This document shows positions 5,379-28,060 of a stretch of 32,000 nt of DNA, piece by piece. The first letter of the stretch is position 1, and the number at the start of each line of letters is the position of its first letter. The notes beneath the pieces were generated by a model. That model was not told where the DNA came from, made no database searches, and worked only from the letters and a program-made list of their open reading frames with translations. This stretch comes from Candidatus Hadarchaeota archaeon (GTDB lineage: Archaea; Hadarchaeota; Hadarchaeia; Hadarchaeales; Hadarchaeaceae). The stretch is from assembly GCA_964514965.1 (NCBI GenBank), contig CAZETV010000001.1, forward strand, positions 480,001-512,000. The letters are read 5' to 3'. The translations under genes and the position numbers were made by a program.

Positions 5379-6612
5379 GATGCAAGTTCGAATGCGGGGC
5401 TTTGCTCACTATACCAAGCTTGGAGATGCCCTGAAGCTCGTGCTTTCGCGAGTGAAACCTTTGAGTTCTGAGATAATCTCGTTCGATAAAGCGTTAGGGC
5501 GCGTGCTGGCCGAAGATGTCGTCTCAAAGATAGATGTCCCTCCCTTCAATCGCTCGGCCGTCGATGGTTACGCTGTTCGCGCGGCTGATGTATTTACGGC
5601 TAGTGAGACAAAACCAAAAAGACTTCGAATAATCTGGTCTGCGAAAATTGGAGTTCCAACCAAACTTTGTGTGCAAAAAGGAGAGGCAATCAAACTTATG
5701 ACTGGGGCACCAATGCCCCACGGCGCAGATGCAGTCGTAATGGTCGAACACACCAAAATCGAGAAAAAACGAATAGCTGTGCTGGTACCGCTCACACCCA
5801 ACAAGAATGTTTCAGCGCGGGGGGAGGATGTTCGCGCGGGCGATGTAGTGCTAAGGCGCGGGCAGCAACTCAGACCTCAAGATATCGGCATGCTTTCGTC
5901 AATCAGCCATCTCAAGGTGCCAGTTTTTCTTAAACCGAAAGTTGCGATTATCGTGACCGGACCCGAACTCAGGCGTCCAGGCAAACGACTAAAACCAGGC
6001 CAAATTACGGACATTAACAGGTACTCTTTATCCGCGGGGGTTACAAACTGCGGCGGCCTAGCGAATCCGCTCGGCATCACCTCTGACAAACCACAAGCGA
6101 TGCGCCGTGTGCTACAAACAGCACTGAAAAATGATGTGGTCCTTATTTCGGGCGGAAGTTCAGTGGGAGAACATGATATCGCCCCCGACATTGTTACCGA
6201 ACTTGGAGAGCTGCTTTTCCATGGTGTCGCCTTACGTCCCGGTGGCCCAACCGCATTTGGCGTGGTTCGGGGTAAGCCAGTGTTCTGTCTAGCTGGTTTT
6301 CCTGTTGCATCGCTGGTTGCTTTCGATATGTTGGTCAGACCCGCGATTTGGGCGATGCAGGGGCTGCCTCCGGATTGGGGATGCCTAAGGGTTCAGGCGA
6401 AGCTGACACGTAAGGTTGCCTCAAACTTGGGGCGCGTGGATGTGGTGCGGGTGCGGGTCCGGAGTGAGGCGGATGAACTTTTGGCTGAGCCAATCCGAAT
6501 CACAGGGTCAAGCATCCTGAGCTCGATGACGCGCGCTAATGGCTTTTTCTTGATTCCTGAAGATGTGGAAGGGTTTGGAAAGGATACTGTCATAGAGGTT
6601 GAACTTTATTAA
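5371..6612 (+). CDS. moeA: Molybdopterin molybdenumtransferase MoeA (paralog 1)
   Basis: 413 aa. Start is GTG 5371 (overlapping moaB) or ATG 5380. MoeA motifs present: IDVPPFNRSAVDGYAV, MTGAPMPHGADAVVMVE, ISGGSSVGEHD, CLAGFPVAS. Confidence 0.9.
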   Translation: MSEMQVRMRGFAHYTKLGDALKLVLSRVKPLSSEIISFDKALGRVLAEDVVSKIDVPPFNRSAVDGYAVRAADVFTASETKPKRLRIIWSAKIGVPTKLCVQKGEAIKLMTGAPMPHGADAVVMVEHTKIEKKRIAVLVPLTPNKNVSARGEDVRAGDVVLRRGQQLRPQDIGMLSSISHLKVPVFLKPKVAIIVTGPELRRPGKRLKPGQITDINRYSLSAGVTNCGGLANPLGITSDKPQAMRRVLQTALKNDVVLISGGSSVGEHDIAPDIVTELGELLFHGVALRPGGPTAFGVVRGKPVFCLAGFPVASLVAFDMLVRPAIWAMQGLPPDWGCLRVQAKLTRKVASNLGRVDVVRVRVRSEADELLAEPIRITGSSILSSMTRANGFFLIPEDVEGFGKDTVIEVELY

Positions 6613-6646
6613 CCGAGCGTTTGATTACGTTAAGGAGCGTGATTTC

Positions 6647-6799
6647 GTGACAGGAAAGATTGAGGACATGGCAGCTGATTTAATCGCAGAGCTCAGGAAT
6701 CGACTCGACGAGCTTGAGCGCCGAGTTTCTTCCCTTGAGCTATCGCTGGGAAAAGCCCAGCTACCCAACCATGACAACAAGATTGAGTCGAAGCGTTAA
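6647..6799 (+). CDS. Small coiled-coil protein (50 aa from GTG 6647; the track ORF starts at TTG 6599)
   Basis: AAGGAG at 6632..6637 lies 9 nt upstream of GTG 6647. The heptad-like sequence is EDMAADLIAELRNRLDELERRVSSLELSL. It sits immediately upstream of, and co-oriented with, the secretion-type ATPase. Confidence 0.4.
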   Translation: MTGKIEDMAADLIAELRNRLDELERRVSSLELSLGKAQLPNHDNKIESKR

Positions 6800-6813
6800 A
6801 GCAGGTAAGGATT

Positions 6814-9024
6814 ATGACGCTTCGGATCTATCGTTCCGGCCCACTTCAGGTCGCAGAAATAGAGTGTCATGGTTGCAAAGGGCTGAGTTCACTCGAAGAT
6901 AAGCGTTGCCGCGCCTGCGTGCTCAAGCAGCTCGGTGCGCAAAACTTGGTAGATCAAGTTACCCTTCGCCGGGCCTATAAACGAGTGTACTGTTCGAGCG
7001 AACTATCAAAACTCGCCAAAACCCTAGCTGTTATCAAACAGCTCATTTTCGACCGTGCATCCTATACTGCAAGTGAGAAAGACAAGTGCAAAGGTTGCGT
7101 AGATAAACGATGCAGAGAATTGACCGAACTATGGGAAAAAATTATAGAGACACCACATGATTTTTCACCGATTGAGAAATTAGTGAAAAAAAACAGTAAA
7201 CTTAAAGGCGAATGTGCGAAATGCACCGAACGTTATTTCCTAAAACTTATCGCGAGCGCAAGGACAGGATTGGCGAGTATTACAACAATTCAAAACGCTG
7301 ACAAAATTGATTACGAGGCGGTTTTTGCGGCACGGGTGATGCCTTTTTTCGTCGAGGGAATTTGTCATCCACCAAAGCACAGATTAAAACTGCTAGAGAC
7401 TTATGAGTTAGCCGAGCGGCGAGGCATTGTGCGAATCTATGAACAACTTGACCGTCCGCTGCCTTTCTACCAACTTGACCTTCCAGAATTCAAGATGCCC
7501 GCGGAGCACCTCCAGTTGCTGGATGATGCATATAAATTTGAGACGAAGACCAAACCAGGACACGCCCGTTTTGCTTTCCCAACGCGAATCTCGGGGTTCC
7601 TCGACGATTGGTACAATGTTTTGCTACATATCCTTCGGGAGCGCTCGGATGTCAAAATTCCCTCTGGTAAGCTTAGGGAACTAGCCAAGCAGATGTCCAG
7701 CTGGCTCACTTACCGATGGCTTGAACCACTCAGTTACGATGACAAACTAACCGACATTTACATCCCCGCACCGCCCGAGCTTCAGCCGATTCGAGTCGTC
7801 CACGAACGTTGGGATATGTGCGAGACTGGTATTCATTGGACGACGCCAGCTCTGTTGGGGTTTGGAGAAACGCTCGCTTCACGCCTTGCAACGTCTTTCG
7901 ATGAAGTCCGTCCGCAGTTGGACATTGAAATCCCCAAGCTTGGAATGCGATTATTTCTGAGTCGATACCCGGCGATATGGTCGAGGAGCATCGCGATATC
8001 TGCTAGGAAGCGCCGCCGACGAGCTTGGACTCAACCACTCTTCCTTGAGCGGAGCACACTCACACCTCTCGCCAGCTCGCTCGTGAGCAACCTCGTTCGG
8101 CGAGGTGCTTCAGCTTTTATAATAGGCGAGATGGGAAGTGCAAAGACCAGCGAAGTCGAGACGCTAGTGCCCGAGATAGGCCCCCACCAACGCATCATAG
8201 CGTTTCAGGATACGGAGGAACTCCACCTTGAGGAGTTCGTCACACATGGTTACTCAATCGAAAATGTACGAATTACCGATGCGGGTCATCTCCAACGCCA
8301 AATTGATGCCTTCCTTAGAGGGGGTGCTGCATACTGGCTCATCACAGAGGTACGGGCGATGGAGGCGGTTAGAGCAGCTTTGGGGGCGGCAACGCGGCAG
8401 GGAAGTCAACCAATCGTAAGCAGCTTTCATGCCCGCTCGAAGCAAGAGATGTTTGATCTGGTGTGCCGCATCATGGGATTGCATGACGCAGCTTACAAAT
8501 ACGTTGATCTTATTGTCAGCACCGCTCGATTTTCCACTCCCACCGGCACCATTAGACGAGTGATAGAGGTGGCTGAAGTACTCAAAGATTGGGAAAACAA
8601 ACCGAAATATGCCGAGCTTTTCACCGACGACCGCCAGCGAGATTTGCTCGTGCCAAGAAATTTTCTTTGCGGTGATAAGCACCTTCTCGAGTGCTTGAAC
8701 TCCTTTGACCTCTCAAAACTCAATGTTCTAGATGCTACACAAAGATTGGACTTCTTGCCACCTGAAAAAGGCGGAAGTCAACTTGTGCCCAAGATGTGCA
8801 AGAGGTTCGCGATAGATGAGCAAGAATTCCTAACGGGGATTCTCGCAGAGGCTAAAATGAAATCTGACTTGCTTTGTTTGGCCCGAAGCACTGGCAATAT
8901 GGATTATCTTGAGCTACCATTCGTGAGTCGCGCCTACGACGCTTACTTCTCTTTCGTTAAAGAAAATGACCCAGAGTACGAGCGCGTTCTAACAAGGTGG
9001 AAAAGTTGGTTGAAGACTCTTTAA
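6814..9024 (+). CDS. Divergent FlaI/PilB/VirB11-superfamily (type II/IV secretion) ATPase with a Cys-rich N-terminal extension
   Basis: 736 aa. The C-terminal half is collinear with FlaI/GspE-type ATPases. The P-loop region is FIIGEMGSAKTS, the Asp-box-like region IAFQDTEELH, the Walker-B/Glu region AYWLITEVRAMEA, and the His box SSFHARS. The N-terminus carries C18-x2-C21-x10-C32-x2-C35 and a second CKGC-x4-C...CAKC cluster. Confidence 0.8.
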   Translation: MTLRIYRSGPLQVAEIECHGCKGLSSLEDKRCRACVLKQLGAQNLVDQVTLRRAYKRVYCSSELSKLAKTLAVIKQLIFDRASYTASEKDKCKGCVDKRCRELTELWEKIIETPHDFSPIEKLVKKNSKLKGECAKCTERYFLKLIASARTGLASITTIQNADKIDYEAVFAARVMPFFVEGICHPPKHRLKLLETYELAERRGIVRIYEQLDRPLPFYQLDLPEFKMPAEHLQLLDDAYKFETKTKPGHARFAFPTRISGFLDDWYNVLLHILRERSDVKIPSGKLRELAKQMSSWLTYRWLEPLSYDDKLTDIYIPAPPELQPIRVVHERWDMCETGIHWTTPALLGFGETLASRLATSFDEVRPQLDIEIPKLGMRLFLSRYPAIWSRSIAISARKRRRRAWTQPLFLERSTLTPLASSLVSNLVRRGASAFIIGEMGSAKTSEVETLVPEIGPHQRIIAFQDTEELHLEEFVTHGYSIENVRITDAGHLQRQIDAFLRGGAAYWLITEVRAMEAVRAALGAATRQGSQPIVSSFHARSKQEMFDLVCRIMGLHDAAYKYVDLIVSTARFSTPTGTIRRVIEVAEVLKDWENKPKYAELFTDDRQRDLLVPRNFLCGDKHLLECLNSFDLSKLNVLDATQRLDFLPPEKGGSQLVPKMCKRFAIDEQEFLTGILAEAKMKSDLLCLARSTGNMDYLELPFVSRAYDAYFSFVKENDPEYERVLTRWKSWLKTL

Positions 9025-10979
9025 AAGTAGAGGAATGGCTACCCGTAAGCGAGGATGTACGAGAAATCCTTGAGCGTTTCAAACAGGTCGAGAAACGTCC
9101 ACCGTATTTTTATGAACGCCTGTGCAAGATCGCTTATCGAATTTTTGGTAAACTCACACAAAACATGAAAGTGACCGAATCTACCCAGCGCGAGCTTGAG
9201 CAAGCAAAGCTCAGAATTTCAGCGCGAGAGTACTGGGCTGGGTTCTTCCTCATGTTGAGCATTCCTATTCTTATGAGCGTTCTTGGGTGGCTACTAACAG
9301 GTCTGACAGGCTCGAACATACTCGCGATGTGGTGGCTCCCTATGCTTGACTTAGTATTAGCATGCGCCTTGGGAATGGTATTCTACCTCTATCCTCCAAG
9401 CCTCGCCGGGATAAAGCGAAGCGAAGCTCAAGGGGGGGCAATTCACACTATTATGTTGTTAAGCTTCGCTCTCTATCATAAGCCCGACCTGCGCGGGGCA
9501 ACGATTTTAGCTGCTAACGAAAGCAAAGGCGAACTCGCGGGTGACCTTCAGCGCGGGCTGCTCGAACTCGATACTCGCCACCGCTATGAGAGTGTCCGAC
9601 ATATGCTCACTGTAATAGCTCATAGGTGGGGCGAAATCGATGAGGGCACGAGGCAGGCGCTTTTCGATATTCTCCGCTCTACTGGTGCGCTGGAGGAATC
9701 TTCTCGCATCTCTGATGTTAGCAGGGCACCACAACGTGTTCTTGGGAGCAGTGAAGCTCAGCTGAGCAAGCGTTTAAACGCGCTGGTAATGCCCACAATG
9801 GCGTTCATGGTATTCGGCTCGCTTGCGATAGTCGGGATAATAGGTCTCTCTCCATTGTTCGGCGCGATAGGGGCAAACTTTGTCCAACTGCACTTCTTCG
9901 TGCTTACAACCCTCTTACTCGTGGCCTCCTTTTTCACATTCACTACATACATGGGCAGTCTCAGGCCCACGACCCTACCTCCTCCCGAGGTGCCGGAGGA
10001 TGATCCTCGCCTGCCCTCACGAGGGAATTCAAGAATCTTCTCGCGAGAAGTTCCATCTTGGTTGCCACCGCTCTTGGTTTTCCTTGCTATCGCTTGGCCA
10101 GGTTTCCTCTATTTCGGGGGCATTAAGGCGGGTACGTTAGGAGCGCTCGTTCAATGGGTGAACGCGTTTTGGTTCATCTGGGCTACGGCTGCGGCGGTTG
10201 CTGTCTACGCATATCTCTACGCTGGGCAGCGAAAGAAGTTTCGAGAAGAAGAAAGGACAAAGGCAATTGATTGGGTAGCGGCGCTCAACACTATCGGTTC
10301 ACGCATGATTGACGGGAAACCAATGAGCCAGGCGATGGTCGAGACTGCTGAGTTAATGCCAGAGTCGCCTGTCTCGAATCAGCTCCACGAAATCGTCGAA
10401 AGCACTGAAAAGCATGCCATAGATGTGCGCCGCGCGCTATTTGAGCGAGGGTTGGTCAAGCGAACCTTTAACCCCCTCATCCAAAGCTTCCTAAACGTGA
10501 TTACACGCATTCGACGGAGTTCGGAAGCTGCAGCAGGACAGGCGTGCATGATGGCGGCAGATTTCCTCTCGACGTTGCATTTAGTCGAACACCGCTTCCG
10601 TGATCGGATAGAGGAGGCGATGGGAAATCTCTGGTTAGTCACAGTAGTTCTGTTACCGACCGTCTGCGCGATGTCAGTCTGGGTGATGGAGTTCATGTCT
10701 GGTGTCTCGTTCACAGTGGCGGGTGAGTCTGCGGGTGCTGGACTGACGAATCTACCCCTCCTGCTGGGCGCAATGGAGGCCAGCGAACTCGTTCTCCTGA
10801 AACTCGTGATGGGTCTAACGGCTATAGCTCTCGCGGCGGTGATGGCTCGCTACATGGCAGTGATAAGTGCTGGCAACGATAAAGTCGAGCTTTGGATTAC
10901 GATGGGTAAAACCGTCTTGTCCACTACGATAGTTTTCACTGTCGCATACTTAGGTTTCGGTTTAATTAAGGGAGCGTAG
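8997..10979 (+). CDS. FlaJ/TadC/GspF-like polytopic membrane platform protein
   Basis: 660 aa. A GTG start overlaps the ATPase gene by 28 nt. At least 9 hydrophobic segments are present. Two soluble helical regions resemble T2SS-F repeats, for example AIDWVAALNTIGSRMIDGKPMSQAMVETAELMPESPVSNQLHEIVESTEKHAIDVRRAL. Position directly after a secretion ATPase supports the call. Confidence 0.7.
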   Translation: MEKLVEDSLKVEEWLPVSEDVREILERFKQVEKRPPYFYERLCKIAYRIFGKLTQNMKVTESTQRELEQAKLRISAREYWAGFFLMLSIPILMSVLGWLLTGLTGSNILAMWWLPMLDLVLACALGMVFYLYPPSLAGIKRSEAQGGAIHTIMLLSFALYHKPDLRGATILAANESKGELAGDLQRGLLELDTRHRYESVRHMLTVIAHRWGEIDEGTRQALFDILRSTGALEESSRISDVSRAPQRVLGSSEAQLSKRLNALVMPTMAFMVFGSLAIVGIIGLSPLFGAIGANFVQLHFFVLTTLLLVASFFTFTTYMGSLRPTTLPPPEVPEDDPRLPSRGNSRIFSREVPSWLPPLLVFLAIAWPGFLYFGGIKAGTLGALVQWVNAFWFIWATAAAVAVYAYLYAGQRKKFREEERTKAIDWVAALNTIGSRMIDGKPMSQAMVETAELMPESPVSNQLHEIVESTEKHAIDVRRALFERGLVKRTFNPLIQSFLNVITRIRRSSEAAAGQACMMAADFLSTLHLVEHRFRDRIEEAMGNLWLVTVVLLPTVCAMSVWVMEFMSGVSFTVAGESAGAGLTNLPLLLGAMEASELVLLKLVMGLTAIALAAVMARYMAVISAGNDKVELWITMGKTVLSTTIVFTVAYLGFGLIKGA

Positions 10980-11419: not shown

Positions 11420-12757
11420 ATGGGTGGTGGTGAAATGGCTTCTAAATCCGAAATCATGCAACTCGCGAAAAAAGAAGAGATAAAGTTCGTTCAGATGCAG
11501 TTCATGGACATTTTAGGCACAGTCAAAAATGTAACAATCCCGATCACTAAGCTCGAAAAAGCTCTTGAGGAGGGCGTGTTCTTTGATGGGTCCTCAATAT
11601 TGGGATACACTACGATTGAGGAGTCCGACATGCGCCTTAAGCCGGACCCTAACACTTTTGTCGTGCTTCCTTGGCTCCAAGACAACATGGAAACAGCCCG
11701 CATCGTGTGTGATGTGTACGACCATGAAGACAACCGGTTCGATGGAGATCCGCGGGCGGCCCTCCAAAGGTTGATGAACCGCGCCCAGAAGAAGGGCTGG
11801 GTCTTCAACACCGCTCCGGAATACGAGTTCTTCCTCTTCATGCTGGACGAGCGAGGGAGTCCGACGACGAAACCCTCCGATCACGGGGGCTACTTTGACT
11901 TGATGCGCGACCGTGGCGATACTGTTCGAAAAGAAATAGTCACCTATCTCAATGCAATGGGTTTTGACGTTGAGGCTTCCCATCATGAAGTTGCACCTGG
12001 ACAGCACGAAATTGACTTGGCGTACTCTGACGCTATAACGTCAGCCGACCGTGTTGCTATGATGAAGTACGTTACGAAAAATATCGCCAACAAACACGGA
12101 CTTTACGCCACTTTCATGCCTAAGCCAATCTTTGGGATCAACGGCTCTGGGATGCATGTCCACCAGTCACTGATGACGCAAAACAAAAGCGTTTTTTACG
12201 ACCCTAAAGGCATATATAAGCTAAACAAGCTCGCGTTTTACTTCATCGGGGGCATGCTGAAGTACGCGAGGGAAACATGCGCGGTTCTCGCCTCATCGGT
12301 CAACTCTTACAAACGTTTGGTTCCAGGGTATGAAGCACCTGTTTACATATCATGGGCCAACCGAAATCGAAGCGCCTTCATTCGTGTACCAGCGGGTAGA
12401 GGCGCACGAACGCGCATCGAACTTCGTAACCCCGATCCGGCTGGTAACCCATATCTTCAGTTCACGGTGATGCTCGCCGCCGGATTGAAGGGGATTGAGG
12501 ACAAGATCGAGCCACCCGAACCAGTCGAGAAAGATATCTTCCGCATGAGCGTCGAAGAACGGGAGACCTTGGGTATAGGGTCCTTGCCGGAGAACCTCGG
12601 GCAGGCGCTTGATTGTATGAAACAAAGCAGCTTGATTCGGGAGGCGATGGGGGACCACCTCTTCAATCACTTCCTCTACATTAAAGGTCAAAATTGGGAA
12701 AACTACAGGGCTCAAATCAGCGATTGGGAAATAAAAACGCTTTTGCCATCACTTTAA
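11420..12757 (+). CDS. glnA: Glutamine synthetase, type I
   Basis: 445 aa (440 aa if ATG 11435 is the start: MASKSEIMQLAKKEEIKFVQMQFMDILG). GS signatures present: FDGSSI, EASHHEVAPGQHEI, NGSGMHVHQS, NSYKRLVPGYEAP, NRSAFIRVP. Confidence 0.96.
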   Translation: MGGGEMASKSEIMQLAKKEEIKFVQMQFMDILGTVKNVTIPITKLEKALEEGVFFDGSSILGYTTIEESDMRLKPDPNTFVVLPWLQDNMETARIVCDVYDHEDNRFDGDPRAALQRLMNRAQKKGWVFNTAPEYEFFLFMLDERGSPTTKPSDHGGYFDLMRDRGDTVRKEIVTYLNAMGFDVEASHHEVAPGQHEIDLAYSDAITSADRVAMMKYVTKNIANKHGLYATFMPKPIFGINGSGMHVHQSLMTQNKSVFYDPKGIYKLNKLAFYFIGGMLKYARETCAVLASSVNSYKRLVPGYEAPVYISWANRNRSAFIRVPAGRGARTRIELRNPDPAGNPYLQFTVMLAAGLKGIEDKIEPPEPVEKDIFRMSVEERETLGIGSLPENLGQALDCMKQSSLIREAMGDHLFNHFLYIKGQNWENYRAQISDWEIKTLLPSL

Positions 12758-12796
12758 CAGTTCGGTTCTGTTTTAAAAAAGTATGATTAAATCGTT

Positions 12797-13735
12797 TTAT
12801 TTTGAATTCTTTCTCATCGGTTCAATTTTTAAAGTCAATTTTTTCAGCACAGGAATTCGTTTCTTAATCAATTTTTCAATCTTTTCTACTATTTCATTCG
12901 CAACATAAACAGAAAGATTTCCATCCACTTTAATACGCATTTCCCCAACAATGTACGGTCCTGACTTTCTGAGATTAACCTCGTGAACCTCTTCAACACC
13001 CTCTACGCTCTCGGCTATACTTTTGACACTACCTCTAGTGCCCGGACAAGCACAACCGTCCATAAGGATGAGCGAAGATTCCCTTATCGCGCCGTATGAA
13101 ATTGCAAAGATAAAAATAGCTATTATCATGGCAGCGACAGCCTCTGCTTGATAATATCCCAAATAAGAGAAAATCAAGCCCAAAAAGACTATTGATGACG
13201 CCATCCCTGTCTTTATCGAATTTTTCGCGTCTGTTTTAAGTGCTACTGAACCAAACGTATTTGCCACTTTTCTTTTGTATACGGCTAATATGAAAAAAGC
13301 TGCAGCAGAAAAAGATGACACAATTAACCCAACGATAGGGAAGGTTAACTCTTTAGGATTAATTAGAGACAAGTACGAACTATAAAAAATCCAGATGCCG
13401 ATAAACACGAGAAAAATGGCTACAATCATTGAAGCAAAATTTTCCATCTTGTAATAGCCGAACTGAAATTTTTCACTAGGACTCTTGTGTAGCATTCTCA
13501 AGCCGATCAATACAATTAATGAAACAAATGCATCGGCAATCGTGTGAACCCCATCCCCTCTCAGTGCAACACTGCCAGATAGAAATCCCGTGAAAAGTAA
13601 AAGACATCCAAGAGAAATTAATGTGAATATAGATATTTTTGTAATCTTTTCGCCTTTTGCTAATTTATCATCAAATTGCATTTTATTCTTTTTCCCCTCG
13701 TATAATATTACATGTTCACTTTCTAAAAATTTCAC
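12797..13735 (-). CDS. Cation diffusion facilitator (CDF) family metal efflux transporter
   Basis: 312 aa from GTG 13735. A more plausible start is ATG 13681 (MQFDDKL...), with TAATATTATA about 20 nt upstream. It has six hydrophobic segments, HTIADAFVSL in TM2, and a C-terminal cytoplasmic alpha/beta domain (VEEVHEVNLRKSGPYIVGEMRIKVD). Confidence 0.85.
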   Translation of the reverse strand: MKFLESEHVILYEGKKNKMQFDDKLAKGEKITKISIFTLISLGCLLLFTGFLSGSVALRGDGVHTIADAFVSLIVLIGLRMLHKSPSEKFQFGYYKMENFASMIVAIFLVFIGIWIFYSSYLSLINPKELTFPIVGLIVSSFSAAAFFILAVYKRKVANTFGSVALKTDAKNSIKTGMASSIVFLGLIFSYLGYYQAEAVAAMIIAIFIFAISYGAIRESSLILMDGCACPGTRGSVKSIAESVEGVEEVHEVNLRKSGPYIVGEMRIKVDGNLSVYVANEIVEKIEKLIKKRIPVLKKLTLKIEPMRKNSK

Positions 13736-13764
13736 TAATTTAAAATCTAATTTTTAAATTTACC

Positions 13765-13978
13765 AAATGCGGGGATTCGACCGCGCGACTACTCCGCAGC
13801 GGTTCGGTCTCCCTCTCCGTACTTTTTGCCGTGCAATCTTTTTCCAGCACTTCAGCTTCAACGCGCCCTACCACGCGTCTTATCCACTGCCTTCCCTAGC
13901 CGCGCTAGGTTCTTCCATGGCTCCCCTTTGCCCTTAGACAAAAGTTTAGCCTTCTTTGCTGGCTTCCTCCCCACCATT
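13765..13978 (-). ncRNA. Candidate structured non-coding RNA of unknown family (~214 nt)
   Basis: This is a G-rich island, about 56% G+C by my count, between AT-rich flanks. The 5' AAUG-GU-GGGGA pairs with the 3' UCCCC-G-CAUU. Internal hairpins are AGCC/GGCU, CUUUUG/CAAAGG, CCUAGC/GCUAGG and ACGCG/CGCGU. A TTTAAATA box lies about 23 nt upstream on the same strand, and an A/T-rich T-tract region lies downstream. No ORF of 60 aa or more is on this strand. I could not match conserved motifs of tRNA, SRP RNA or RNase P RNA. Confidence 0.3.
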
Positions 13979-14082
13979 AGCTTTTCAGCAATATTCAACT
14001 ATTTAAAGTTTTTGCGTGTTACTAAAAATGTAACAAACTTACGTTTAAGTTTAAAAGTAAATTAAAATTTGCGGCGGTTAAG

Positions 14083-14769
14083 ATGCCCTTAAAATCGCAG
14101 GTCAATAAATGCGCTTCCGCTCCAACGATTGCGGTCTTCACTATATTCTTGATCCTGTGCTCAAGCGTAGCGATAGTTACTTTTCAGTCTCTAGAAGAGC
14201 GAGGGGTCTCAACGATTATTCTGGAGAGTGCTGCTGATCTAGTTCGCGCTACAGCATCGCAAGTTGAAAGCGAACTAAATTCAACGCTCGAGAGCTCGAT
14301 AGTTGCTGCGATGTATGATGTCGGCTTAACGGGTGGTACGCGTGAAAATGTGGAAAATTACATTCGCGAATACATGAACGCGCATATCTCTGACATCAAC
14401 GCCTCTTCAAGCTCACCCCTTAAAGTCACCGTACCCCTATGCGACGAAAACTCGCTCATGATTGAGTGGTCACCTAATGGAGGCATTTGCGCGGGGGGTT
14501 ATCTAGACGCCAGCTTTGAGCATGTGATGGGCCCTAAAGCATTTGGGTTAAGTTTACATGCAATGTCCCGCCCGAGGTTTGAAAGGATAAAACAAGTAGC
14601 TGAATTATCTGCGGTGATGGTGGCGAACGCAGACATCGTGGAGTTGGAGCGAGTGCTTAACGAGAACTATGCGTGCGAAGGGCTTACGGTTGAGCTGGTG
14701 GATGAGAACGGTATAGTTTCAGTGACTGTGCGGGACATCTTTGGGGCTCGAGGAGTATTCGTTCCTTAA
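14083..14769 (+). CDS. N-terminally membrane-anchored protein, paralog of the 165-aa protein at 26273..26770
   Basis: 228 aa with a single N-terminal hydrophobic helix (PTIAVFTIFLILCSSVAIVTF). Collinear similarity to the 165-aa protein is visible: SIVAAMYDVGLTGG vs RAAAENLLLG, VENYIREYM vs AMENALEYL, and SLMIEWSPNGG vs SSWELSWPEG. Confidence 0.6.
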   Translation: MPLKSQVNKCASAPTIAVFTIFLILCSSVAIVTFQSLEERGVSTIILESAADLVRATASQVESELNSTLESSIVAAMYDVGLTGGTRENVENYIREYMNAHISDINASSSSPLKVTVPLCDENSLMIEWSPNGGICAGGYLDASFEHVMGPKAFGLSLHAMSRPRFERIKQVAELSAVMVANADIVELERVLNENYACEGLTVELVDENGIVSVTVRDIFGARGVFVP

Positions 14770-15761
14770 ACCACAGCTTCTAACTCGGGCTCCGATTGGA
14801 AAACAAAGCCAGGAGTATTTTCCAGATACCACCATGGCATAGCTTGATATTGCAAGATGTAACCGTCAAATTCTACCTGCCAAGTGAGGTAAGTGGAAAC
14901 GTTGGTAGTCACTGCAGCAGCTCGAATCGATGCGTTATTCGGTATGCTTACTACTAAATTATCGCTTATACGCCGCCAAGTCCGCGAGCGTAAATAACCA
15001 AGCGCCTGCGCAGGCGAGTACAGCCATCCACTCAAGTAAGCGTTTTCTGCACTGGGACAGAGTAAGGGGTTGTCAAATTCTCCCGAGTAATTATCGATGT
15101 TTGAAATAACCCAATTATTATCGACGAGTCCGATATTTTCACAGTTTTCGTACCCTTGAACACGAAGCAATATTGAACCAGTACGAACGAGTATCGAATC
15201 GCTATTTTCCCATTTGTATGCGTCAATGTCACGGGACACGTCAAAGTAGGCGGCGATAATCGCTGTTGCCTCGCGCTGGTTCTCTCGCGCGAAATAATAG
15301 AATTCCGGTGGTTCGCCTGAGGGTGTGTGAAAAACGTTTTCAGGTACCGTTTCAATCGGGGAGGCGCTGACGAGCACGACATCACCCGAGCACGTGAAAT
15401 AAACCCTTCCTCCAGGTGTGATGCTTGTACTCTCCATCTGCAACCCTACATTTGCAACGGTCCAGTAGCTTTCGCCTGCTCCAGTCCCCTCTGTTATCCT
15501 CACTATGAAGGTCGAGCGGTTCTCATCTATTTCGAGCTCATAACTTGAACCAGCTAATTGCAAGGGCAAGTCAAGAGTGGGCTGCTGTCCAGATAGAGCT
15601 GAAAAACAGGTTTTTGCTAAATCGTCCGCAAGCGCTTGGGCCTGAGCACTGACCTCGAATTCCCGCTGCTCCGTCAACTGCATGAAGAAGACCCCCGCAA
15701 GCAGAATAGCCATGAGAATCCCGAAGAGCAGATAGAACGGCAGCTCGTAGGTATCAGACAC
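14766..15761 (-). CDS. N-terminally membrane-anchored protein (331 aa), unknown family
   Basis: A GTG start overlaps the upstream 120-aa gene stop by 8 nt. The N-terminus is MSDTYELPFYLLFGILMAILLAGVFF, followed by a beta-rich, Trp/Tyr/Asn-rich extracellular-looking domain. Confidence 0.65.
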   Translation of the reverse strand: MSDTYELPFYLLFGILMAILLAGVFFMQLTEQREFEVSAQAQALADDLAKTCFSALSGQQPTLDLPLQLAGSSYELEIDENRSTFIVRITEGTGAGESYWTVANVGLQMESTSITPGGRVYFTCSGDVVLVSASPIETVPENVFHTPSGEPPEFYYFARENQREATAIIAAYFDVSRDIDAYKWENSDSILVRTGSILLRVQGYENCENIGLVDNNWVISNIDNYSGEFDNPLLCPSAENAYLSGWLYSPAQALGYLRSRTWRRISDNLVVSIPNNASIRAAAVTTNVSTYLTWQVEFDGYILQYQAMPWWYLENTPGFVFQSEPELEAVV

Positions 15762-16116
15762 TTACCGTCACCCCATTCTCCGTGCGCTTGATAACTAGCC
15801 GCGCCTGTTGCCCGCTGAGAGTCGGCCCACTGACCATGGCACCCGCATCGAAATTCTCCTGTGTCTGCCCGATTACGATCACTACTGATTTCTCTTCGAA
15901 TTGGAGTTCACAGTTTGTGGGCACCATGATGTCGAAGGGGAGAGAAGCCCCTACGTCTTGATCTGCTAGGAGCTTTACCTGCTGCGCGAGCTGCTCGGCC
16001 TGGTGTCTGAAAACGGTCTCTGTGCTCCCATTCTGATATTGTAAGTATAGTGTAGCGAAAATCGAGAGGAAAATTGCAACAAAGATAACACTCGCTAAGG
16101 TTCGAAGAGCCACCAT
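15754..16116 (-). CDS. Small N-terminally anchored protein (120 aa), paralog of 27189..27542
   Basis: The N-terminus MVALRTLASVIFVAIFLSIFATLY matches MPAFRTLALVILAAFVVSIFILGY. Shared downstream pattern: I.VP....I.FE...V.I.G and a C-terminal L.V....N.V.VS. Confidence 0.65.
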   Translation of the reverse strand: MVALRTLASVIFVAIFLSIFATLYLQYQNGSTETVFRHQAEQLAQQVKLLADQDVGASLPFDIMVPTNCELQFEEKSVVIVIGQTQENFDAGAMVSGPTLSGQQARLVIKRTENGVTVSV

Positions 16117-17489: not shown

Positions 17490-18216
17490 AATAATATTAA
17501 TAACCGGCCACAAGAAGAGCGGCAAGACCAAAGTAATCGAGGGTTTAATCAAAGAGCTAATAAATCGTAGCTATCGCGTGGGAACGGTGAAACATGTCCC
17601 GAAACAAGGATTCACGTTGGATCAATCTGGTACGGACACTTGGAGGCATGCCCAAGCGGGGAGTAAGACAATAGTGTGTGTAAGCCCTGAAGAAGTTGCA
17701 ACTCTGGAGAAACGTAAGCCTGACCTCGGAGGAATACTTTTGAGTTTGCGTGACCTCGATTTTGTCATATTGGAGGGCTTCGGTAGTGTTAAAAATTTAG
17801 TGAAGATAACGGTTGCCCGAAATGAGAACGAAGCATCGGAGTTGGACGACGATTTCACGGTCGGTTTTATAGGCCAAGGAGTCGGTGCAAAAGAGGTCTT
17901 AGACCCGGATAATTTTAGAGCAATTGCTGACTTGGTCGAGCAGAAAGCACTTCCCCCTACAGCTGGTCTCGACTGCGGAGACTGTGGTTATAGAACCTGC
18001 AGAGAGTTTTTTCTCGCAGCTCTAGCTGAGAAAGCTCCGAAAAACGGTTGCAGACCGCTCTTTGGCCGCGTCCTGCTTACGGTGGATAGCAGACGAATCC
18101 CCCTTAATGTTTTCATGCAGAATTTGATAGCCGGAACCATTGCTGGGATGTTAACCTCTCTGAAAGGTGCTAAAGGAGAGGAGATAAAAATCGAGGTAAT
18201 TCGGCATGAAAGATAG
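17482..18216 (+). CDS. mobB: MobB (molybdopterin-guanine dinucleotide biosynthesis adapter, P-loop GTPase) fused to a C-terminal Cys-motif domain
   Basis: The likely TTG start at 17482 overlaps the moeA stop; the track ORF extends to 17407 inside moeA. The MobB core is ILITGHKKSGKTKVIEGLIKEL...VGTVKH...GTDTWRHAQAG. The C-terminal part carries CGDCGYRTC-x17-C, like the RnfB-N-terminal / putative Fe-S cluster domain. Confidence 0.8.
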   Translation: MLRIILITGHKKSGKTKVIEGLIKELINRSYRVGTVKHVPKQGFTLDQSGTDTWRHAQAGSKTIVCVSPEEVATLEKRKPDLGGILLSLRDLDFVILEGFGSVKNLVKITVARNENEASELDDDFTVGFIGQGVGAKEVLDPDNFRAIADLVEQKALPPTAGLDCGDCGYRTCREFFLAALAEKAPKNGCRPLFGRVLLTVDSRRIPLNVFMQNLIAGTIAGMLTSLKGAKGEEIKIEVIRHER

Positions 18217-19147
18217 ATATGGGCGGCCAATCACCAGCTTGCGAATATCCGTGACTAACAGGTGCGACCTAAATTGTTTTTACTGCCATCGAGAGGGCTG
18301 CCAAGGCGGAGATCGGGAGATGACAGCGAACGAAATAGGTGAAATAGTCCGAGTCGGATCAGAATTTGGTATCAAAAATGTCAAGCTGACTGGCGGAGAA
18401 CCTCTGATGCGTGATGATATAGAGGATATAGTGTCCGCGGTTAATCAGCCCTCCATTGCTGATGTTTCGATGACGACCAACGGCACTAAGCTCGCTGGAA
18501 AAGCGAGAGGGCTAGCAGAGGCCGGGCTTAATCGTGTCAACATTAGTTTGGATACTCTAAAACCTCTAATTTATTCTAAGATCACCGATGCGCCGAAGCT
18601 TGAACGCGTTCTAGAAGGCATAGACGCCGCGCTGGATGCCGGCCTGCATCCCGTGAAGTTGAACATGCTTGTCCTTAGGGAGATTAATGAGGGCGAGATT
18701 GAGCAGGTAATGGATTATTCACTGGACCGCGGAGCAATTCTGCAGATTCTAGAATTGCTTCGAACGCCCGATATCGCAGAAATTTATGAGCGCTTTCACG
18801 TTAGCTTAGAACCATTTGAACGTAAGATTCGCGAACAGGCACTGGACATCAAGACACGCCTATTAGGGCAAGCAAGGAAAAAGTACATTCTGCCCAAGGG
18901 AGAGGTTGAGATCGTCAGACCGATGCATAACTCCGAATTCTGTATGCATTGTACCCGCCTTCGCCTCACTCCTGATGGTCATCTCAAACCGTGCCTGATG
19001 CGCAACGATAACCTCGTGGATGTATTTTCCCCTATCAGTATAGACGACCTCGAAGGAGTCCGCAAAGCTTTCGCCGAAACCATCGCGAGGCGGGAACCAT
19101 ATTTCAAAGGTGTAGCTCGTGAGATATGCATTCAGAGTTGCGTATGA
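18206..19147 (+). CDS. moaA: GTP 3',8-cyclase MoaA (radical SAM)
   Basis: 313 aa overlapping mobB by 11 nt. It has the radical-SAM CDLNCFYCH motif, GGEPLMR, and C-terminal second-cluster cysteines (FCMHCTRLRLTPDGHLKPC). Confidence 0.92.
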   Translation: MKDRYGRPITSLRISVTNRCDLNCFYCHREGCQGGDREMTANEIGEIVRVGSEFGIKNVKLTGGEPLMRDDIEDIVSAVNQPSIADVSMTTNGTKLAGKARGLAEAGLNRVNISLDTLKPLIYSKITDAPKLERVLEGIDAALDAGLHPVKLNMLVLREINEGEIEQVMDYSLDRGAILQILELLRTPDIAEIYERFHVSLEPFERKIREQALDIKTRLLGQARKKYILPKGEVEIVRPMHNSEFCMHCTRLRLTPDGHLKPCLMRNDNLVDVFSPISIDDLEGVRKAFAETIARREPYFKGVAREICIQSCV

Positions 19148-22583: not shown

Positions 22584-23885
22584 GTGAAAATTGCGGTCAT
22601 CGCTGACACTCACCTGGGGACGAAGTGGGGGACTGCGCGGGAACAAGATTCTTTCGAGCAGACTAGAGAGGCCGTTGAGCAAGCGCTTGAACTTGGTGCG
22701 GAACTCATTCTCGTACTCGGCGATATTTTTGATATGAGAATCCCCCGCCAAGAAGTTTGGGCCCAAGCCATGCGTATCCTCTCAATTCCACTAGCAAAGG
22801 GACGAAACGAAATTACACTCAGCCGTGTTATAGACAAAAATCAGGACGATTTCTCCCCGGTGGCGCTCCGCGGGACACCCGTAATTGCTTTACACGGAAA
22901 TCACGAGCGGCGCACCAGAGGATTCATCAATCCTGTAGAAGCTCTCGAAGCTGCAGGTCTACTTATCCACCTGCATCACAACACGCTGGTTTTTAAAACC
23001 TCAAGTGGTACGTTAGCGATTCACGGCATGAGCAATGTACCCGAACAACATTCAAAAGATGTGCTCGCCACTTGGAACCCAAAGCCTGTGAAAGATGCGT
23101 TCAACATCCTGATGCTTCACCAATCTGTGGGACAGTACGTGTACTCGAGCGAGGAGTTCCCGACAATTGACCTCTCGGATCTGCCGTCCGGGTTTGATCT
23201 TTACCTCTGTGGACATATCCACTATCATACAGAAGCTACAACTCACGGGAAGCCACTGCTCTTTCCAGGAAGCACCGAACGAACCCAGCTGCTTCAAGTG
23301 GAGGCAGGGGTGCCAAAGGGGTTCTACATGCTCGACCTCGATGACCGGCTCAGCTACGAGTTTATCGCGCTTAAGAGTACACGAGATTTTTATTACGAAG
23401 AAATGAAATTCGAGAGTGTTGGAACCCTTCAGTTGAGTGAAGCGGTAAGAACAAAGGTATCGGAGCTTCTGGAGCGGCCCAGACACAATTTCGAGAAGCT
23501 ACCTCTGATCAGGCTGAGGCTCACTGGAACCCTCTCAAAGGGGGCATCGCGCAGCGAGTTAGACGAGCGATCAATCATTCAGGAGTTCGCCGATCGAGCG
23601 TTGGTCGCTATAAGCAAGGGCGATCTCACCTCCCCAGGGCTTGAGGAAAAAGTACAGCTCCTACGCAAGTTGAGGGAGAGACGCTTACCAATAGATGAGA
23701 TGGCTATGGGTCTGCTCGAGGCAAACCTTCGCGAGGTCAATTACGATCAACCGTTCGACGTACGTATGCTCTACAATCTTTTGGTTGAGAACAGGAGCGG
23801 GGAGGCTCTTCAAAAGGTGTTTGATGTGGTGGAAGAGCAGGTCAAAATTGAGCTGGAGAGGAAATCAGATGATAACTCAAGTTAA
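22584..23885 (+). CDS. mre11: DNA double-strand break repair nuclease Mre11
   Basis: 433 aa with a GTG start. Calcineurin-like phosphoesterase motifs appear in order: IADTHLG, LGDIFD, LHGNHE, LMLHQ, CGHIH. Confidence 0.92.
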   Translation: MKIAVIADTHLGTKWGTAREQDSFEQTREAVEQALELGAELILVLGDIFDMRIPRQEVWAQAMRILSIPLAKGRNEITLSRVIDKNQDDFSPVALRGTPVIALHGNHERRTRGFINPVEALEAAGLLIHLHHNTLVFKTSSGTLAIHGMSNVPEQHSKDVLATWNPKPVKDAFNILMLHQSVGQYVYSSEEFPTIDLSDLPSGFDLYLCGHIHYHTEATTHGKPLLFPGSTERTQLLQVEAGVPKGFYMLDLDDRLSYEFIALKSTRDFYYEEMKFESVGTLQLSEAVRTKVSELLERPRHNFEKLPLIRLRLTGTLSKGASRSELDERSIIQEFADRALVAISKGDLTSPGLEEKVQLLRKLRERRLPIDEMAMGLLEANLREVNYDQPFDVRMLYNLLVENRSGEALQKVFDVVEEQVKIELERKSDDNSS

Positions 23886-26271: not shown

Positions 26272-26272
26272 T

Positions 26273-26770
26273 TTAGGCCCCAGCAATCTCGAAAATCCTC
26301 ACGGTCGCTGGCACAGCAATGTTTTCCCCACCAGCCGTGGTTAAACGTACCTCCCCTTGTCTAACAAATTGTTTCTCCGCATCTATGCCGGGCCCAACAC
26401 CTTCGGGCCATGAAAGCTCCCAAGAAGAGTTATCGTAACTTAAGTTGACCGCCACAGCATATCCTGGCGGGCAAAGGTATTCGAGGGCGTTCTCCATGGC
26501 GGAGCGCAAGTGGAGTCCAGGCACGGTTGGTTGTCCTAGCAGAAGATTTTCGGCGGCCGCTCGCAGAAAGCTTATACTATACGGCCCGACCCAAGCGAGC
26601 TCCAATGTCATGTACAAATGTTCGCTCTTGAGTTCGAGTTGGCGGTCGGTGGCTGTCTGGAGTGGTCTCAAGCTGTAGGTGTGCATAAACACCGCGGCGA
26701 GGACTAGCATTACAAACATGAAAGCGATTGCGAGAATATCTGCAACGCCCTGATTTTCTAAGCGCGCCAT
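26273..26770 (-). CDS. N-terminally membrane-anchored protein (165 aa), paralog of 14083..14769
   Basis: The likely start is ATG 26770 (MARLENQGVADILAIAFMFVMLVLAAVFMHTY), overlapping the upstream gene by 13 nt. This is the last gene of a 4-gene minus-strand operon. Its stop is 1 nt from the convergent rad50 stop. Confidence 0.6.
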   Translation of the reverse strand: MARLENQGVADILAIAFMFVMLVLAAVFMHTYSLRPLQTATDRQLELKSEHLYMTLELAWVGPYSISFLRAAAENLLLGQPTVPGLHLRSAMENALEYLCPPGYAVAVNLSYDNSSWELSWPEGVGPGIDAEKQFVRQGEVRLTTAGGENIAVPATVRIFEIAGA

Positions 26771-27192
26771 GCGATCACACTTAACTTGGCGGGTAAGAAT
26801 CGGCCATCCTCGTAGAGTGCGCACGCCACCGCCAACGAACATCTCGCCTTATCCTCGGGTGGGGCTAAACCATAGGGTCCGAGAATATATTCGCTCCCAG
26901 CCTCGTAGCTCACCGAAACCAAAAAATCAAAGTTTTCACCACCAATCTCCCAGCGGGTGGGACAATTTTCAAGTTTCTCAGGATCAATCGAGTACATGTG
27001 CAACTTTTCATCGTTGTCTACATACGCCAGTTCCTCTACAGATAGGCGGGTGACGATTGCTGACGTGACATCAGTTAGCTCAGTGAGCGCAGAGATGGTA
27101 CGGTGTTGTTGGTAAGCAGAGACGGTCACAAGCAAGAAAGAGATAACAAGAATGCATGTAGTAAGTGTTTTCAGGATTTGGGTTAGTGTCAT
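26758..27192 (-). CDS. N-terminally membrane-anchored protein (144 aa), unknown family
   Basis: The N-terminus is MTLTQILKTLTTCILVISFLLVTVSAY, followed by a soluble domain. The start overlaps the upstream gene stop by 4 nt. Confidence 0.6.
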   Translation of the reverse strand: MTLTQILKTLTTCILVISFLLVTVSAYQQHRTISALTELTDVTSAIVTRLSVEELAYVDNDEKLHMYSIDPEKLENCPTRWEIGGENFDFLVSVSYEAGSEYILGPYGLAPPEDKARCSLAVACALYEDGRFLPAKLSVIAWRA

Positions 27193-27542
27193 TTGCTCAC
27201 CACGACTGAATTATCTTCAAGCGTTACTGTTAGCACGTATGAACCTTCGCTGAGTTCTTGGCCTATTAATTGTATCGAGTACCCATTTTCTGGGACTTCG
27301 AAACCGTTTATTGCCACACGTTGATTTTCAAACTTGATTTTGTAACCGCTAGGCACAGTAATCTCAACGGTTTGTGGGTTTCCGGTCGCAATCGCTGCTT
27401 GAACACCGTTGTTCAGTTCAAGTGCAGCGTCCCTTGCTCTACGCTCGCGGTCGAGTCCTTGAAGGAACTGGTACCCTAAAATGAATATCGAAACTACGAA
27501 AGCGGCAAGTATCACGAGCGCAAGGGTCCTGAAAGCGGGCAT
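27189..27542 (-). CDS. Small N-terminally anchored protein (117 aa), paralog of 15754..16116
   Basis: The N-terminus MPAFRTLALVILAAFVVSIFILGY is followed by a beta-rich domain. See the paralog comparison at 15754..16116. Confidence 0.65.
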   Translation of the reverse strand: MPAFRTLALVILAAFVVSIFILGYQFLQGLDRERRARDAALELNNGVQAAIATGNPQTVEITVPSGYKIKFENQRVAINGFEVPENGYSIQLIGQELSEGSYVLTVTLEDNSVVVSK

Positions 27543-27547
27543 ACTTT

Positions 27548-28006
27548 CTAGCCTACGATAGTCAGCTGAAATGTTGTGCTCTTTGTGGTACCGTCTTCGC
27601 CCGTCACACGGATACTTATCGTGATGGCGTCTGGCTCGGCAGTATTATCGACGCTTATGGTCATGATCGAATCGAACTCTGGGGTGCTGCTCTGAGGAGA
27701 GAAACTTACGCTAACTCCAGTTGGCATTCCAGTCGCGCTGAGCGTCACCTGCTTGTCGTAACCCAGCACTGATTGGACGGTGACTTGCGCAGTAATCGTA
27801 TTCTCGCTAGTTGTTGGTTTTCCAATCGTTTCACTCGTGGGCGAGACGTTTACGCTAAAGCTAAGAGTCTCCTGCGCGCCTATGCCCACCTGCTGGTAAA
27901 GCGTCACTCCTATACCCAGCCCCACAGCGAGCAAGATTATGCCCGCCATGATTTTCATCACGGTAGGTTCTACCCCTACTTCATCCTCCAATAACCCCTT
28001 CACCAT
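27548..28006 (-). CDS. Candidate archaeal type IV pilin-like / surface filament subunit with C-terminal Ig-like (CARDB/PKD-like) beta domain
   Basis: ATG 28006 is preceded by GGAGGT at a 5-nt spacing; the track starts 2 codons earlier at TTG. The N-terminus MVKGLLEDEVGVEPTVMKIMAGIILLAVGLGIGVTLY resembles the archaeal flagellin/pilin N-terminal domain (compare ..RGVSPVIGVILMVAITV..). The C-terminus has alternating beta pattern QVTLSATGMPTGVSVSFSPQSS...ITISIRVTGEDGTTKSTTFQLTIV. Confidence 0.6.
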   Translation of the reverse strand: MVKGLLEDEVGVEPTVMKIMAGIILLAVGLGIGVTLYQQVGIGAQETLSFSVNVSPTSETIGKPTTSENTITAQVTVQSVLGYDKQVTLSATGMPTGVSVSFSPQSSTPEFDSIMTISVDNTAEPDAITISIRVTGEDGTTKSTTFQLTIVG

Positions 28007-28040
28007 GCTCAACCTCCATAGCTTACTTTTCGATCTTTAA

Positions 28041-28060
28041 AGCATTAAATTAATAATGCT
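28041..28060. promoter_or_regulatory. A/T-rich inverted repeat in the divergent pilin-operon / glmM promoter region
   Basis: The sequence AGCATTA-AATTAA-TAATGCT has 7-bp perfect arms and a 6-bp spacer. It lies 35-55 nt upstream of the pilin-like gene ATG and next to CTTTAAAG. It could be a TATA/BRE region, an operator, or both. Confidence 0.3.

Follow-up and report, generated by a model that had tools for sequence, protein, structure and literature searches.

A probable, very divergent type IV pilus assembly system conserved across Hadarchaeota and dispersed over 21 kb in one sub-lineage

We analyzed a 32,000-nucleotide (nt) stretch of a Candidatus Hadarchaeota archaeon genome (assembly GCA_964514965.1, contig CAZETV010000001.1, positions 480,001-512,000, forward strand; hereafter the window, numbered from its first nucleotide), in which an earlier, sequence-only reading had described three separated gene blocks as one type IV filament-like machine. 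The ten genes of these blocks probably encode a single lineage-specific and very divergent type IV pilus assembly system, with a core and gene order shared with DPANN archaea and a dispersed layout produced by rearrangement. The system is conserved throughout Hadarchaeota; as an archaeal type IV pilus it is of an ordinary kind, and no new type of machine is revealed. Its unity had been made subject beforehand to a gene-neighborhood test, and this comparison revealed the same families together in compact Hadarchaeota operons and on a Micrarchaeota contig. The suggestion that the system might be undescribed holds for its platform and pilin families, which are annotated as hypothetical and carry no Pfam domains, but not for the system itself.

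Hadarchaeota are uncultivated, small-genome, subsurface archaea, and we found no description of their surface appendages in the literature. In each genome, ten genes, all but one of which are annotated as hypothetical, can now be assigned to one pilus machine conserved across the phylum, and this machine can be linked to equally unannotated loci of DPANN archaea, for whose symbiotic lifestyle attachment structures are central. Concrete targets for cryo-electron tomography and proteomics follow from this assignment, p154 being the candidate filament subunit. Censuses of archaeal type IV filaments based on arCOG or Pfam models probably overlook the platform and pilins of this group. All ten open reading frames (ORFs) were present in the ORF listing of the window, at the coordinates originally described; they are given below with the length in amino acids (aa) and the basis of each assignment.

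6647-6799, plus strand: coiled-coil peptide, 50 aa (GTG start at 6647; the mechanical ORF starts at a TTG at 6599)
6814-9024, plus strand: secretion/assembly ATPase of the FlaI/GspE2/TadA type, 736 aa (NCBIfam and PDB profile matches)
8997-10979, plus strand: platform membrane protein of a divergent T2SSF/TadC/FlaJ type, 660 aa (relatives, AlphaFold2 model and position)
14083-14769, plus strand: p228, prepilin-like protein with a class III-type N-terminus (ortholog alignment)
14766-15761, minus strand: p331, N-anchored protein with a p117-like N-terminal domain and a C-terminal domain of ~200 aa (hhalign)
15754-16116, minus strand: p120, small N-anchored pilin-like protein, paralog of p117 (BLASTP)
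26273-26770, minus strand: p165, prepilin-like protein with a class III-type signal (alignment; the mechanical ORF extends to 26842, 189 aa)
26758-27192, minus strand: p144, N-terminal signal-anchor protein (alignment, without a canonical cleavage motif)
27189-27542, minus strand: p117, small N-anchored pilin-like protein with the N-terminus MPA(L/F)RTLG (alignment and hhalign)
27548-28006, minus strand: p154, candidate major pilin, 152 aa (ATG at 28006; the mechanical ORF starts at a TTG at 28012)

Gene order in Hadarchaeota and in DPANN archaea

A scan of one genome per GTDB species identified 49 loci encoding the ATPase, all from Hadarchaeota, and tblastn searches of these loci with all window proteins revealed four layouts. 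Nine loci (L013, L015, L017, L018, L023, L025, L026, L038 and L045) contain a single operon in the order ATPase-platform-p154-p117-p144-p165-p228, followed by GlnA. In three others (L024, L028 and L048), p120-p331-p228 are located divergently upstream of ATPase-platform-p154-p117-p144-p165, and L048 carries a complete nine-gene cluster spanning 8.4 kb. In the third layout (L033, L039, L041 and L049), p331 adjoins the ATPase gene, with MoaC-MoaB-MoeA upstream. The dispersed layout was found only in close relatives of the window (L001, L004, L005 and L034; 84-91% identity).

Several positions were fixed. The platform gene always directly follows the ATPase gene in the Hadarchaeota loci, p154 is the first gene 3' of the platform gene in all compact operons, p165 is the fourth gene after it, and p144 always lies between p117 and p165. 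p331 is next to the ATPase gene in L024, L027, L028, L030, L039, L041, L048 and L049, and p120 is upstream of p331 in L024, L028, L048, L001 and L034. p228 follows p165 in the nine single-operon loci and p331 in L024, L028 and L048. Because the same ten gene families are physically together in dozens of other genomes, their clustering goes far beyond chance. It could still be argued that the three blocks are unrelated and that the small proteins are membrane or secreted proteins of an ordinary kind, placed close to a secretion ATPase by coincidence, given that six of the seven have no family assignment and that housekeeping genes separate the blocks. However, at least 20 other genomes, and the Micrarchaeota contig as well, carry these families in one stretch with the ATPase-platform pair, which effectively refutes a chance association, and we give it virtually no weight.

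The split over 21 kb between housekeeping operons is real, but it is a derived layout. Since other Hadarchaeota hold the genes in compact clusters, the dispersal is secondary and arose in one sub-lineage; close relatives at 84-91% identity are dispersed too, and it is therefore a clade-level rearrangement. The molybdenum cofactor (Moco) and Mre11/Rad50 neighbors are incidental, and no functional meaning attaches to the Moco, GlnA and Mre11/Rad50 genes that separate the blocks. Part of the rearrangement can be traced locally. p228 (plus strand) and p331 (minus strand) are convergent, with stop codons overlapping by 4 nt (14766-14769); as p228 lies on the same strand directly downstream of p331 in L024, L028 and L048, it underwent a precise local inversion here.

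The same comparison bears on a pilus for DNA uptake or exchange coupled to Mre11/Rad50, in the manner of Ups or competence pili. In its favor, block iii (26273-28006) is convergent with Rad50 across a 1-nt gap. Other genomes do not keep this arrangement: none of the compact loci has Mre11/Rad50 after the pilin genes, which instead follow the platform gene and precede p228 and GlnA, and no DNA-binding or translocase component is linked. We consider this role highly improbable, and nothing supports the uptake function that had been proposed as one option.

Two observations concern genes beside the pilus operon. GlnA is immediately 3' of the operon in L013, L015, L017, L018, L025, L026 and L045 (at ~16-18 kb in the locus) and still follows the platform gene in the window (11420-12757), a conserved adjacency without an obvious functional link. 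In the window, a CDF transporter gene is located between GlnA and p228, where compact loci have p228-GlnA adjacency, and may mark a point of insertion or rearrangement.

Relatives of the system were also identified beyond Hadarchaeota. On the Micrarchaeota contig (L051:3918-10793, from SRR12113385), a 716-aa ATPase (242 bits to the Hadarchaeota profile, over its full length) and a 633-aa platform protein (232 bits) are followed by a 74-aa protein with the sequence NNKG↓VEGLP (the arrow marks a putative cleavage site here and below), which matched the p154 hidden Markov model (HMM) at 2.8e-5, and by a 136-aa homolog of p117 (HMM E 2e-10; hhalign 94.9%). Then come proteins of 131, 129 and 166 aa (the last with NG↓QSAIDL), a 48-aa coiled-coil ORF and a 227-aa protein (KG↓FAVTPL) that is the positional equivalent of p228; the gene order is collinear with that of the Hadarchaeota operon. 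A second DPANN locus (L050:3595-14686) is similar, with a divergent 125-aa coiled-coil gene. Both loci encode cysteine-rich ATPases of 716-742 aa, a platform protein and a row of small N-anchored proteins without Pfam matches.

The closest relatives found outside this Hadarchaeota/DPANN group were an ATPase with a cysteine-rich N-terminus (107 bits) and a platform protein (73 bits) encoded on plasmid NZ_CP149790.1 of Haloterrigena sp. KLK7 (L053:5363-10232). Only the catalytic core of this ATPase aligns; the full-length N- and C-terminal domains common to the Hadarchaeota and DPANN proteins are absent from it. A canonical PilB3-like ATPase of another Hadarchaeon scored 44 bits against the same ATPase profile. 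Searches of the Haloterrigena and L050 loci with the small-protein profiles gave no significant matches. Two small N-anchored proteins flank the Haloterrigena pair; the N-terminus of one of them, ...DDRAIEG↓LPIRLVIALVVG, resembles G↓VEP and G↓VEGLP. The ATPase-platform core, the cysteine-rich N-terminal domain and the gene order are shared with DPANN archaea, and the relatives on the haloarchaeal plasmid are weaker.

The ATPase, its coiled-coil partner and the platform protein

The first block (6647-10979) had been read as a coiled-coil peptide, a FlaI/PilB-like ATPase and a FlaJ/TadC-like membrane protein, and the analysis is consistent with all three identifications. The 736-aa ATPase matched the NCBIfam models for FlaI (3e-15) and TadA (9e-11), and a profile built from 14 sequences matched PDB entries for FlaI (4ii7, 2e-21), Archaeoglobus fulgidus GspE (afGspE; 2oap, 9e-21), CpaF (9e-16) and VirB11 (5e-8), all confined to residues 280-612. 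The window protein itself had no Pfam match, T2SSE included; a precomputed match to PF00437 (T2SSE) exists for many of its orthologs. Three regions were distinguished: a cysteine-rich N-terminal domain (~1-290), the catalytic core (~290-610) and a unique C-terminal domain (~130 aa). Boxes invariant in 14 diverse homologs comprise the Walker A motif (G..G.AKTS), an Asp box (FQDTEEL), Walker B (WLITEVR) and a His box (SFHA). By these matches and motifs, the protein belongs to the FlaI/GspE2/TadA branch of the Type II/IV secretion-system ATPases. CxxC...CxxC clusters at residues 18-34 and ~92-137 are kept in most orthologs and in the DPANN and Haloterrigena relatives, and the N-terminal domain is possibly metal-binding. 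All of the 121 ATPase homologs that carried a source name came from Hadarchaeota/Hadesarchaea or candidate division MSBL1.

The 50-aa peptide is hydrophilic, lacks a hydrophobic segment and gave weak matches to coiled-coil families (DUF7310, E 0.0066; ArlX, E 0.16). It is conserved just upstream of the ATPase gene in L001-L006, L007, L010, L028 and L029 and is absent in L015 and L048. It is a probable cytoplasmic accessory of the ATPase.

The 660-aa platform protein is polytopic, with several transmembrane segments, and its gene shares 28 nt with the end of the ATPase gene, an overlap conserved across all loci. Its family was recovered by a chain of evidence. The window protein had no Pfam match, and among 17 orthologs three matched T2SSF weakly (best E 0.0017). 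All of 100 homologs from a set of 5.8 billion proteins were annotated as hypothetical, none with Pfam T2SSF. A HMMER search with the family profile yielded 603 representatives, 161 of them at E <= 1e-30, including full-length proteins of 600-750 aa from Micrarchaeota, Nanoarchaeia and Altiarchaeales. Two relatives, P0279 (E ~1e-54 to the profile; T2SSF 28.2 bits) and P0344 (~1e-40; 30.4 bits), exceed the gathering cutoff of T2SSF (PF00482; 25.2 bits), and T2SSF membership of the platform is thus transitive. Deep-branching family members carry the JGI annotation 'Flp pilus assembly protein TadB'.

Structure prediction pointed in the same direction. The AlphaFold2 (AF2) model is all-helical (predicted local distance difference test score, pLDDT, 81.6), and Foldseek matched part of it to the cytoplasmic domain of EpsF (2vmb; prob 1.0, template modeling score 0.71 by target) and to a PilC model (3jc8; prob 0.72), in both cases with poor global E-values. 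A PDB profile search with the platform returned nothing. Alignment by hhalign with a single canonical FlaJ (from L032) and a test for an internal repeat between the N- and C-terminal halves were each in register and not significant. From its relatives, model and position, we accept the protein as a very divergent, putative TadC/FlaJ-type platform.

A derived archaellum, that is, a rotary swimming organelle, would also account for some of these matches: FlaI is the best single family match of the ATPase, the coiled-coil peptide matches ArlX/FlaX weakly, and FlaF and FlaG could have their analogues in p117 and p120. Yet the FlaI equivalog model gave 55.9 bits against a cutoff of 550, and FlaH/KaiC, archaellin, FlaF/FlaG, FlaC/D/E and FlaX are absent from the window and from all compact loci. 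The absence from the window of a FlaH/KaiC-like protein, an archaellin set and an A24 peptidase had already been remarked in the sequence-only reading and was borne out. In L032, moreover, a separate canonical cluster of KaiC, Pilin_N, T2SSE and T2SSF genes lies beside the divergent pair, and the literature ties large extra ATPase domains to non-motility systems. An archaellum is very unlikely. This reading, DNA uptake and chance co-occurrence were all rejected on the evidence of synteny and components.

At the L032 locus (11638-19131; CAZKGC010000001.1), two type IV filament systems are adjacent. The divergent ATPase-platform pair, downstream of which no window-type pilin genes were detected and which may use other pilins there, precedes a canonical cluster that encodes a KaiC/FlaH-like ATPase, a Zn-ribbon protein, a Pilin_N pilin (KRG↓VSPVVG), MinD/ParA, a PilB3-like T2SSE ATPase, a T2SSF platform and a DUF7289 protein.

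Small N-anchored proteins and neighboring genes

All seven small proteins of blocks ii (14083-16116) and iii have exactly one hydrophobic segment, located at the N-terminus, in agreement with the single hydrophobic helix ascribed to each of them. Class III-type signal motifs were conserved in family-level alignments of p154, p165 and p228. In p154 the motif is (R/K/A/V)G↓VEP..MK..G..LL.IGLGIG, with G, E and P invariant in 24 homologs. Its AF2 model consists of a helix (residues 14-47) beginning at the predicted cleavage site and an immunoglobulin (Ig)-like beta-sandwich (residues 50-151; pLDDT > 90), and Foldseek matched it to generic Ig/Fn3-like folds. For p154, the model thus agrees with the beta-rich domain that had been ascribed to all seven proteins. 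Given this motif and model, p154 is most likely the major subunit. Orthologs of p165 share the motif [KR]G↓VSD(I/V)L..AFMF, with G8 and D11 invariant, and p165 is likely to be a minor pilin. Orthologs of p228 share [KR]G↓(A/S)A(P/A)TLAIF followed by a hydrophobic stretch, consistent with a likely minor pilin or accessory subunit.

The remaining four proteins are less canonical. No canonical cleavage site was found in the p117, p120 and p144 alignments, and the class III signal of p331 is ambiguous, as KG↓(K/R/S)I(I/V)WRIL occurs in some orthologs only. Of two paralog pairs claimed between the blocks, the one between the 120-aa and 117-aa proteins was recovered (32% identity, E 2e-8 by BLASTP). 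The other, between the 228-aa and 165-aa (189-aa) proteins, was rejected: BLASTP showed no similarity (E 9) and profile-profile comparison gave a probability of 6.7%, over the N-terminal segment only. BLASTP of the 331-aa against the 144-aa protein likewise revealed no similarity. In profile-profile comparisons with hhalign, the p117/p120 family aligned with p154 (92%, E 7e-7) and with the first 130 aa of p331 (96%, E 4e-9); p154 thus has homologs in p117, p120 and the N-terminal part of p331. p144 matched the p117 family weakly (48%). p117 is likely a minor pilin or base component, and p331 is a candidate tip or adhesin subunit.

Matches of the small proteins to well-characterized non-pilin families, which would have counted against the earlier reading, were not seen. 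Neither the small proteins of the window nor, in Pfam, the ortholog sets of p165, p117/p120, p331 and p228 produced above-threshold Pfam or NCBIfam matches, and PDB profile searches with all six small-protein families returned nothing meaningful. Sub-threshold matches to DUF7266 were seen in four of eleven p331 orthologs (best 3e-5, 24.2 bits against a cutoff of 27.6).

The composition of this set raises the alternative that the machine builds a short pseudopilus or bindosome-like scaffold instead of a long adhesive filament, displaying or secreting other class III-signal proteins at the cell surface, on the model of Sulfolobus Bas or of the 'functionalised TFF' put forward for substrate-binding proteins. 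Seven different small pilin-like subunits with no obviously amplified major pilin gene would suit a scaffold, as would the large extra domains of the ATPase, which a 2026 preprint (Sivabalasarma & Albers) links to non-rotary specialized functions while arguing that functionalized machines are widespread. Against this, the NCBIfam BasE model gave 23.3 bits compared with a cutoff of 1000, a gene for a substrate-binding protein was linked in none of the 49 loci, and the compact helix-plus-Ig architecture predicted for p154 is typical of filament subunits. We regard a scaffold as rather unlikely and favor a filament.

The rest of the window represents an archaeal chromosome. A Pfam scan of all large ORFs identified Nop5, PdxS/PdxT, MoaC, MoaB, MoeA (two copies), GlnA, a CDF transporter, MobB, MoaA, TruA, a DNA methylase, the RFC large subunit, Mre11, Rad50, GlmM and GatE; no tRNA or Rfam elements were found in the window. 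The genes between the three blocks are those for Moco biosynthesis, GlnA, the CDF transporter, RFC, Mre11 and Rad50. The two MoeA paralogs (5371-6612 and 16239-17489; ~40% identity, from tblastn cross-matches) lead separate Moco groups, MoaC-MoaB-MoeA1 upstream of the ATPase and MoeA2-MobB-MoaA beside block ii, and MoaC-MoaB-MoeA1 is also next to the ATPase in the distant Hadarchaeota loci L039, L041 and L049. Low-GC patches at 12001-14000 (0.43) and 28001-30000 (0.45), compared with ~0.50 elsewhere, span the CDF transporter gene with the region upstream of block ii, and GlmM, respectively. The mechanical Rad50 ORF (858 aa; region 23695-23885) overlaps Mre11 and has 58 codons ahead of the point where the SMC_N/AAA_23 matches begin; the true start is probably the ATG at ~23869 (MITQVKLKNW...), which would reduce the overlap with the Mre11 stop to ~17 nt.

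The proposed pilus and known type IV filament systems

In the pilus that we propose, a prepilin peptidase encoded elsewhere would cleave the class III signals of p154 (G↓VEP), p165 (G↓VSD) and p228 (G/A↓SAP). The hexameric ATPase would bind the platform protein at its cytoplasmic helical bundles, possibly with the help of the coiled-coil peptide and of the cysteine-rich domain at the N-terminus of the ATPase, and ATP hydrolysis would drive the N-terminal helices of the pilins to be pulled from the membrane and stacked into a filament. p117, p120, p144 and p331, which have a pilin fold or an N-terminal anchor and no canonical cleavage site, would most likely form a priming, tip or base complex, and p331, with its additional domain of 200 aa, is a candidate adhesin. 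Filament formation, p154 as major pilin, peptidase processing, ATP-driven assembly and a role in adhesion are what we infer by homology with characterized systems; adhesion or cell-cell contact, not swimming, would be the most probable function.

Several observations weigh against an ordinary, functional pilus of this kind. Archaeal pilins are not among the top Foldseek matches for p154, and none of the small proteins reaches the threshold of Pilin_N (PF07790; best p117, E 0.22). The residues at position -2 of the three putative cleavage sites in the window are V, Q and C, not K/R. Two motif scans for an A24 prepilin peptidase, covering the window and 792 kb of flanking sequence from related loci, were negative; the Pilin_N pilin of L032 with KRG↓VSP implies that a class III peptidase is present in the phylum. 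No filament on any Hadarchaeon was found described in the literature. Finally, the Gly that precedes the catalytic Lys is near-universal in Walker A motifs; it is replaced by Ala in the window protein (GEMGSAKT, residues 438-445, nt 8125-8148) and in 115 of 120 Hadarchaeota ATPases, and retained in the Micrarchaeota (GPRGSGKS) and Haloterrigena (GTRGAGKT) relatives. The substitution is a conserved lineage-specific variant of the P-loop that could alter activity.

A further reading, which we advance tentatively and think doubtful as it stands, is that the Hadarchaeota and DPANN loci might form a distinct, unclassified clade of archaeal type IV filament systems, with pilin families of its own (a G↓VEP major pilin and the p117/p120/p331 fold family), a fused 650-750-aa platform barely recognized by curated T2SSF models, and a ~740-aa ATPase with a cysteine-rich N-terminus and a C-terminal domain. 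The sharing between the two groups, one a free-living subsurface phylum and the other episymbiotic, would then reflect horizontal transfer or a role in inter-archaeal cell-cell contact, and the Walker A change of Hadarchaeota an altered motor.

Returning to the proposed archaeal type IV pilus, comparison with known systems revealed partial likenesses to each. The archaellum motor pair FlaI/FlaJ (ArlI/ArlJ) scores best among the characterized homologs of the ATPase core and shares the order ATPase then platform. In contrast, the Hadarchaeota ATPase has additional N-terminal (~290 aa) and C-terminal (~130 aa) domains, and the system lacks FlaH, archaellin and FlaCDE/FlaX. The bacterial Tad/Flp system (CpaF/TadA, TadB, TadC) is similar in its ATPase core (CpaF, 9e-16) and in its short G↓x-E pilins (74 aa in Micrarchaeota), but the Hadarchaeota system has a single 660-aa platform instead of two, is without secretin, TadZ and RcpA-type parts, and has the Glu at +2 (G↓VEP), compared with +5 in Tad/Flp.

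The Epd pilus of Methanococcus (clade or system 1) occurs in euryarchaeal relatives of Hadarchaeota and in DPANN archaea, and it too has many minor pilins and a small major pilin. Its locus contains two platform genes, DUF2341 adhesins, EppA and MinD, whereas the Hadarchaeota system has one platform gene, and DUF2341 adhesins, EppA and MinD were found in no Hadarchaeota locus examined. The Bas, Aap and Ups systems of Sulfolobus share the minimal set of an ATPase, a platform and a few class III-signal proteins; they differ in having AapX- or UpsX-type partners and other pilin families, and the BasE score of the Hadarchaeota ATPase was far below the cutoff.

The closest published description is that of archaeal type IV pilus subclade 4F (Makarova, Koonin & Albers 2016, PMC4858521), which corresponds to subsystem 4F in Sivabalasarma & Albers 2026. 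The former census, of 126 genomes, predates Hadarchaeota genomes (PMC4858521), and the latter, a MacSyFinder2 preprint, does not mention Hadarchaeota. Subclade 4F comprises an ATPase and TadC-like pair in which the ATPase has an additional N-terminal cysteine-rich domain, together with a small intracellular coiled-coil protein (arCOG07564) in halobacteria; for its nanoarchaeal members, pilins 'could not be identified' (PMC4858521). The Hadarchaeota system differs in that its pilins do not belong to the PilA/Pilin_N family (arCOG02981 or arCOG10216) and its loci have no S-layer-like, CetZ or SMC neighbor, and its placement rests on relative profile scores (107 and 73 bits for Haloterrigena compared with 44 bits for the PilB3-like ATPase). 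It nevertheless has the same ATPase and TadC-like pair, the same cysteine-rich N-terminal ATPase domain and a coiled-coil partner. Thus, in its components the Hadarchaeota pilus resembles subclade 4F and is a candidate member of it.

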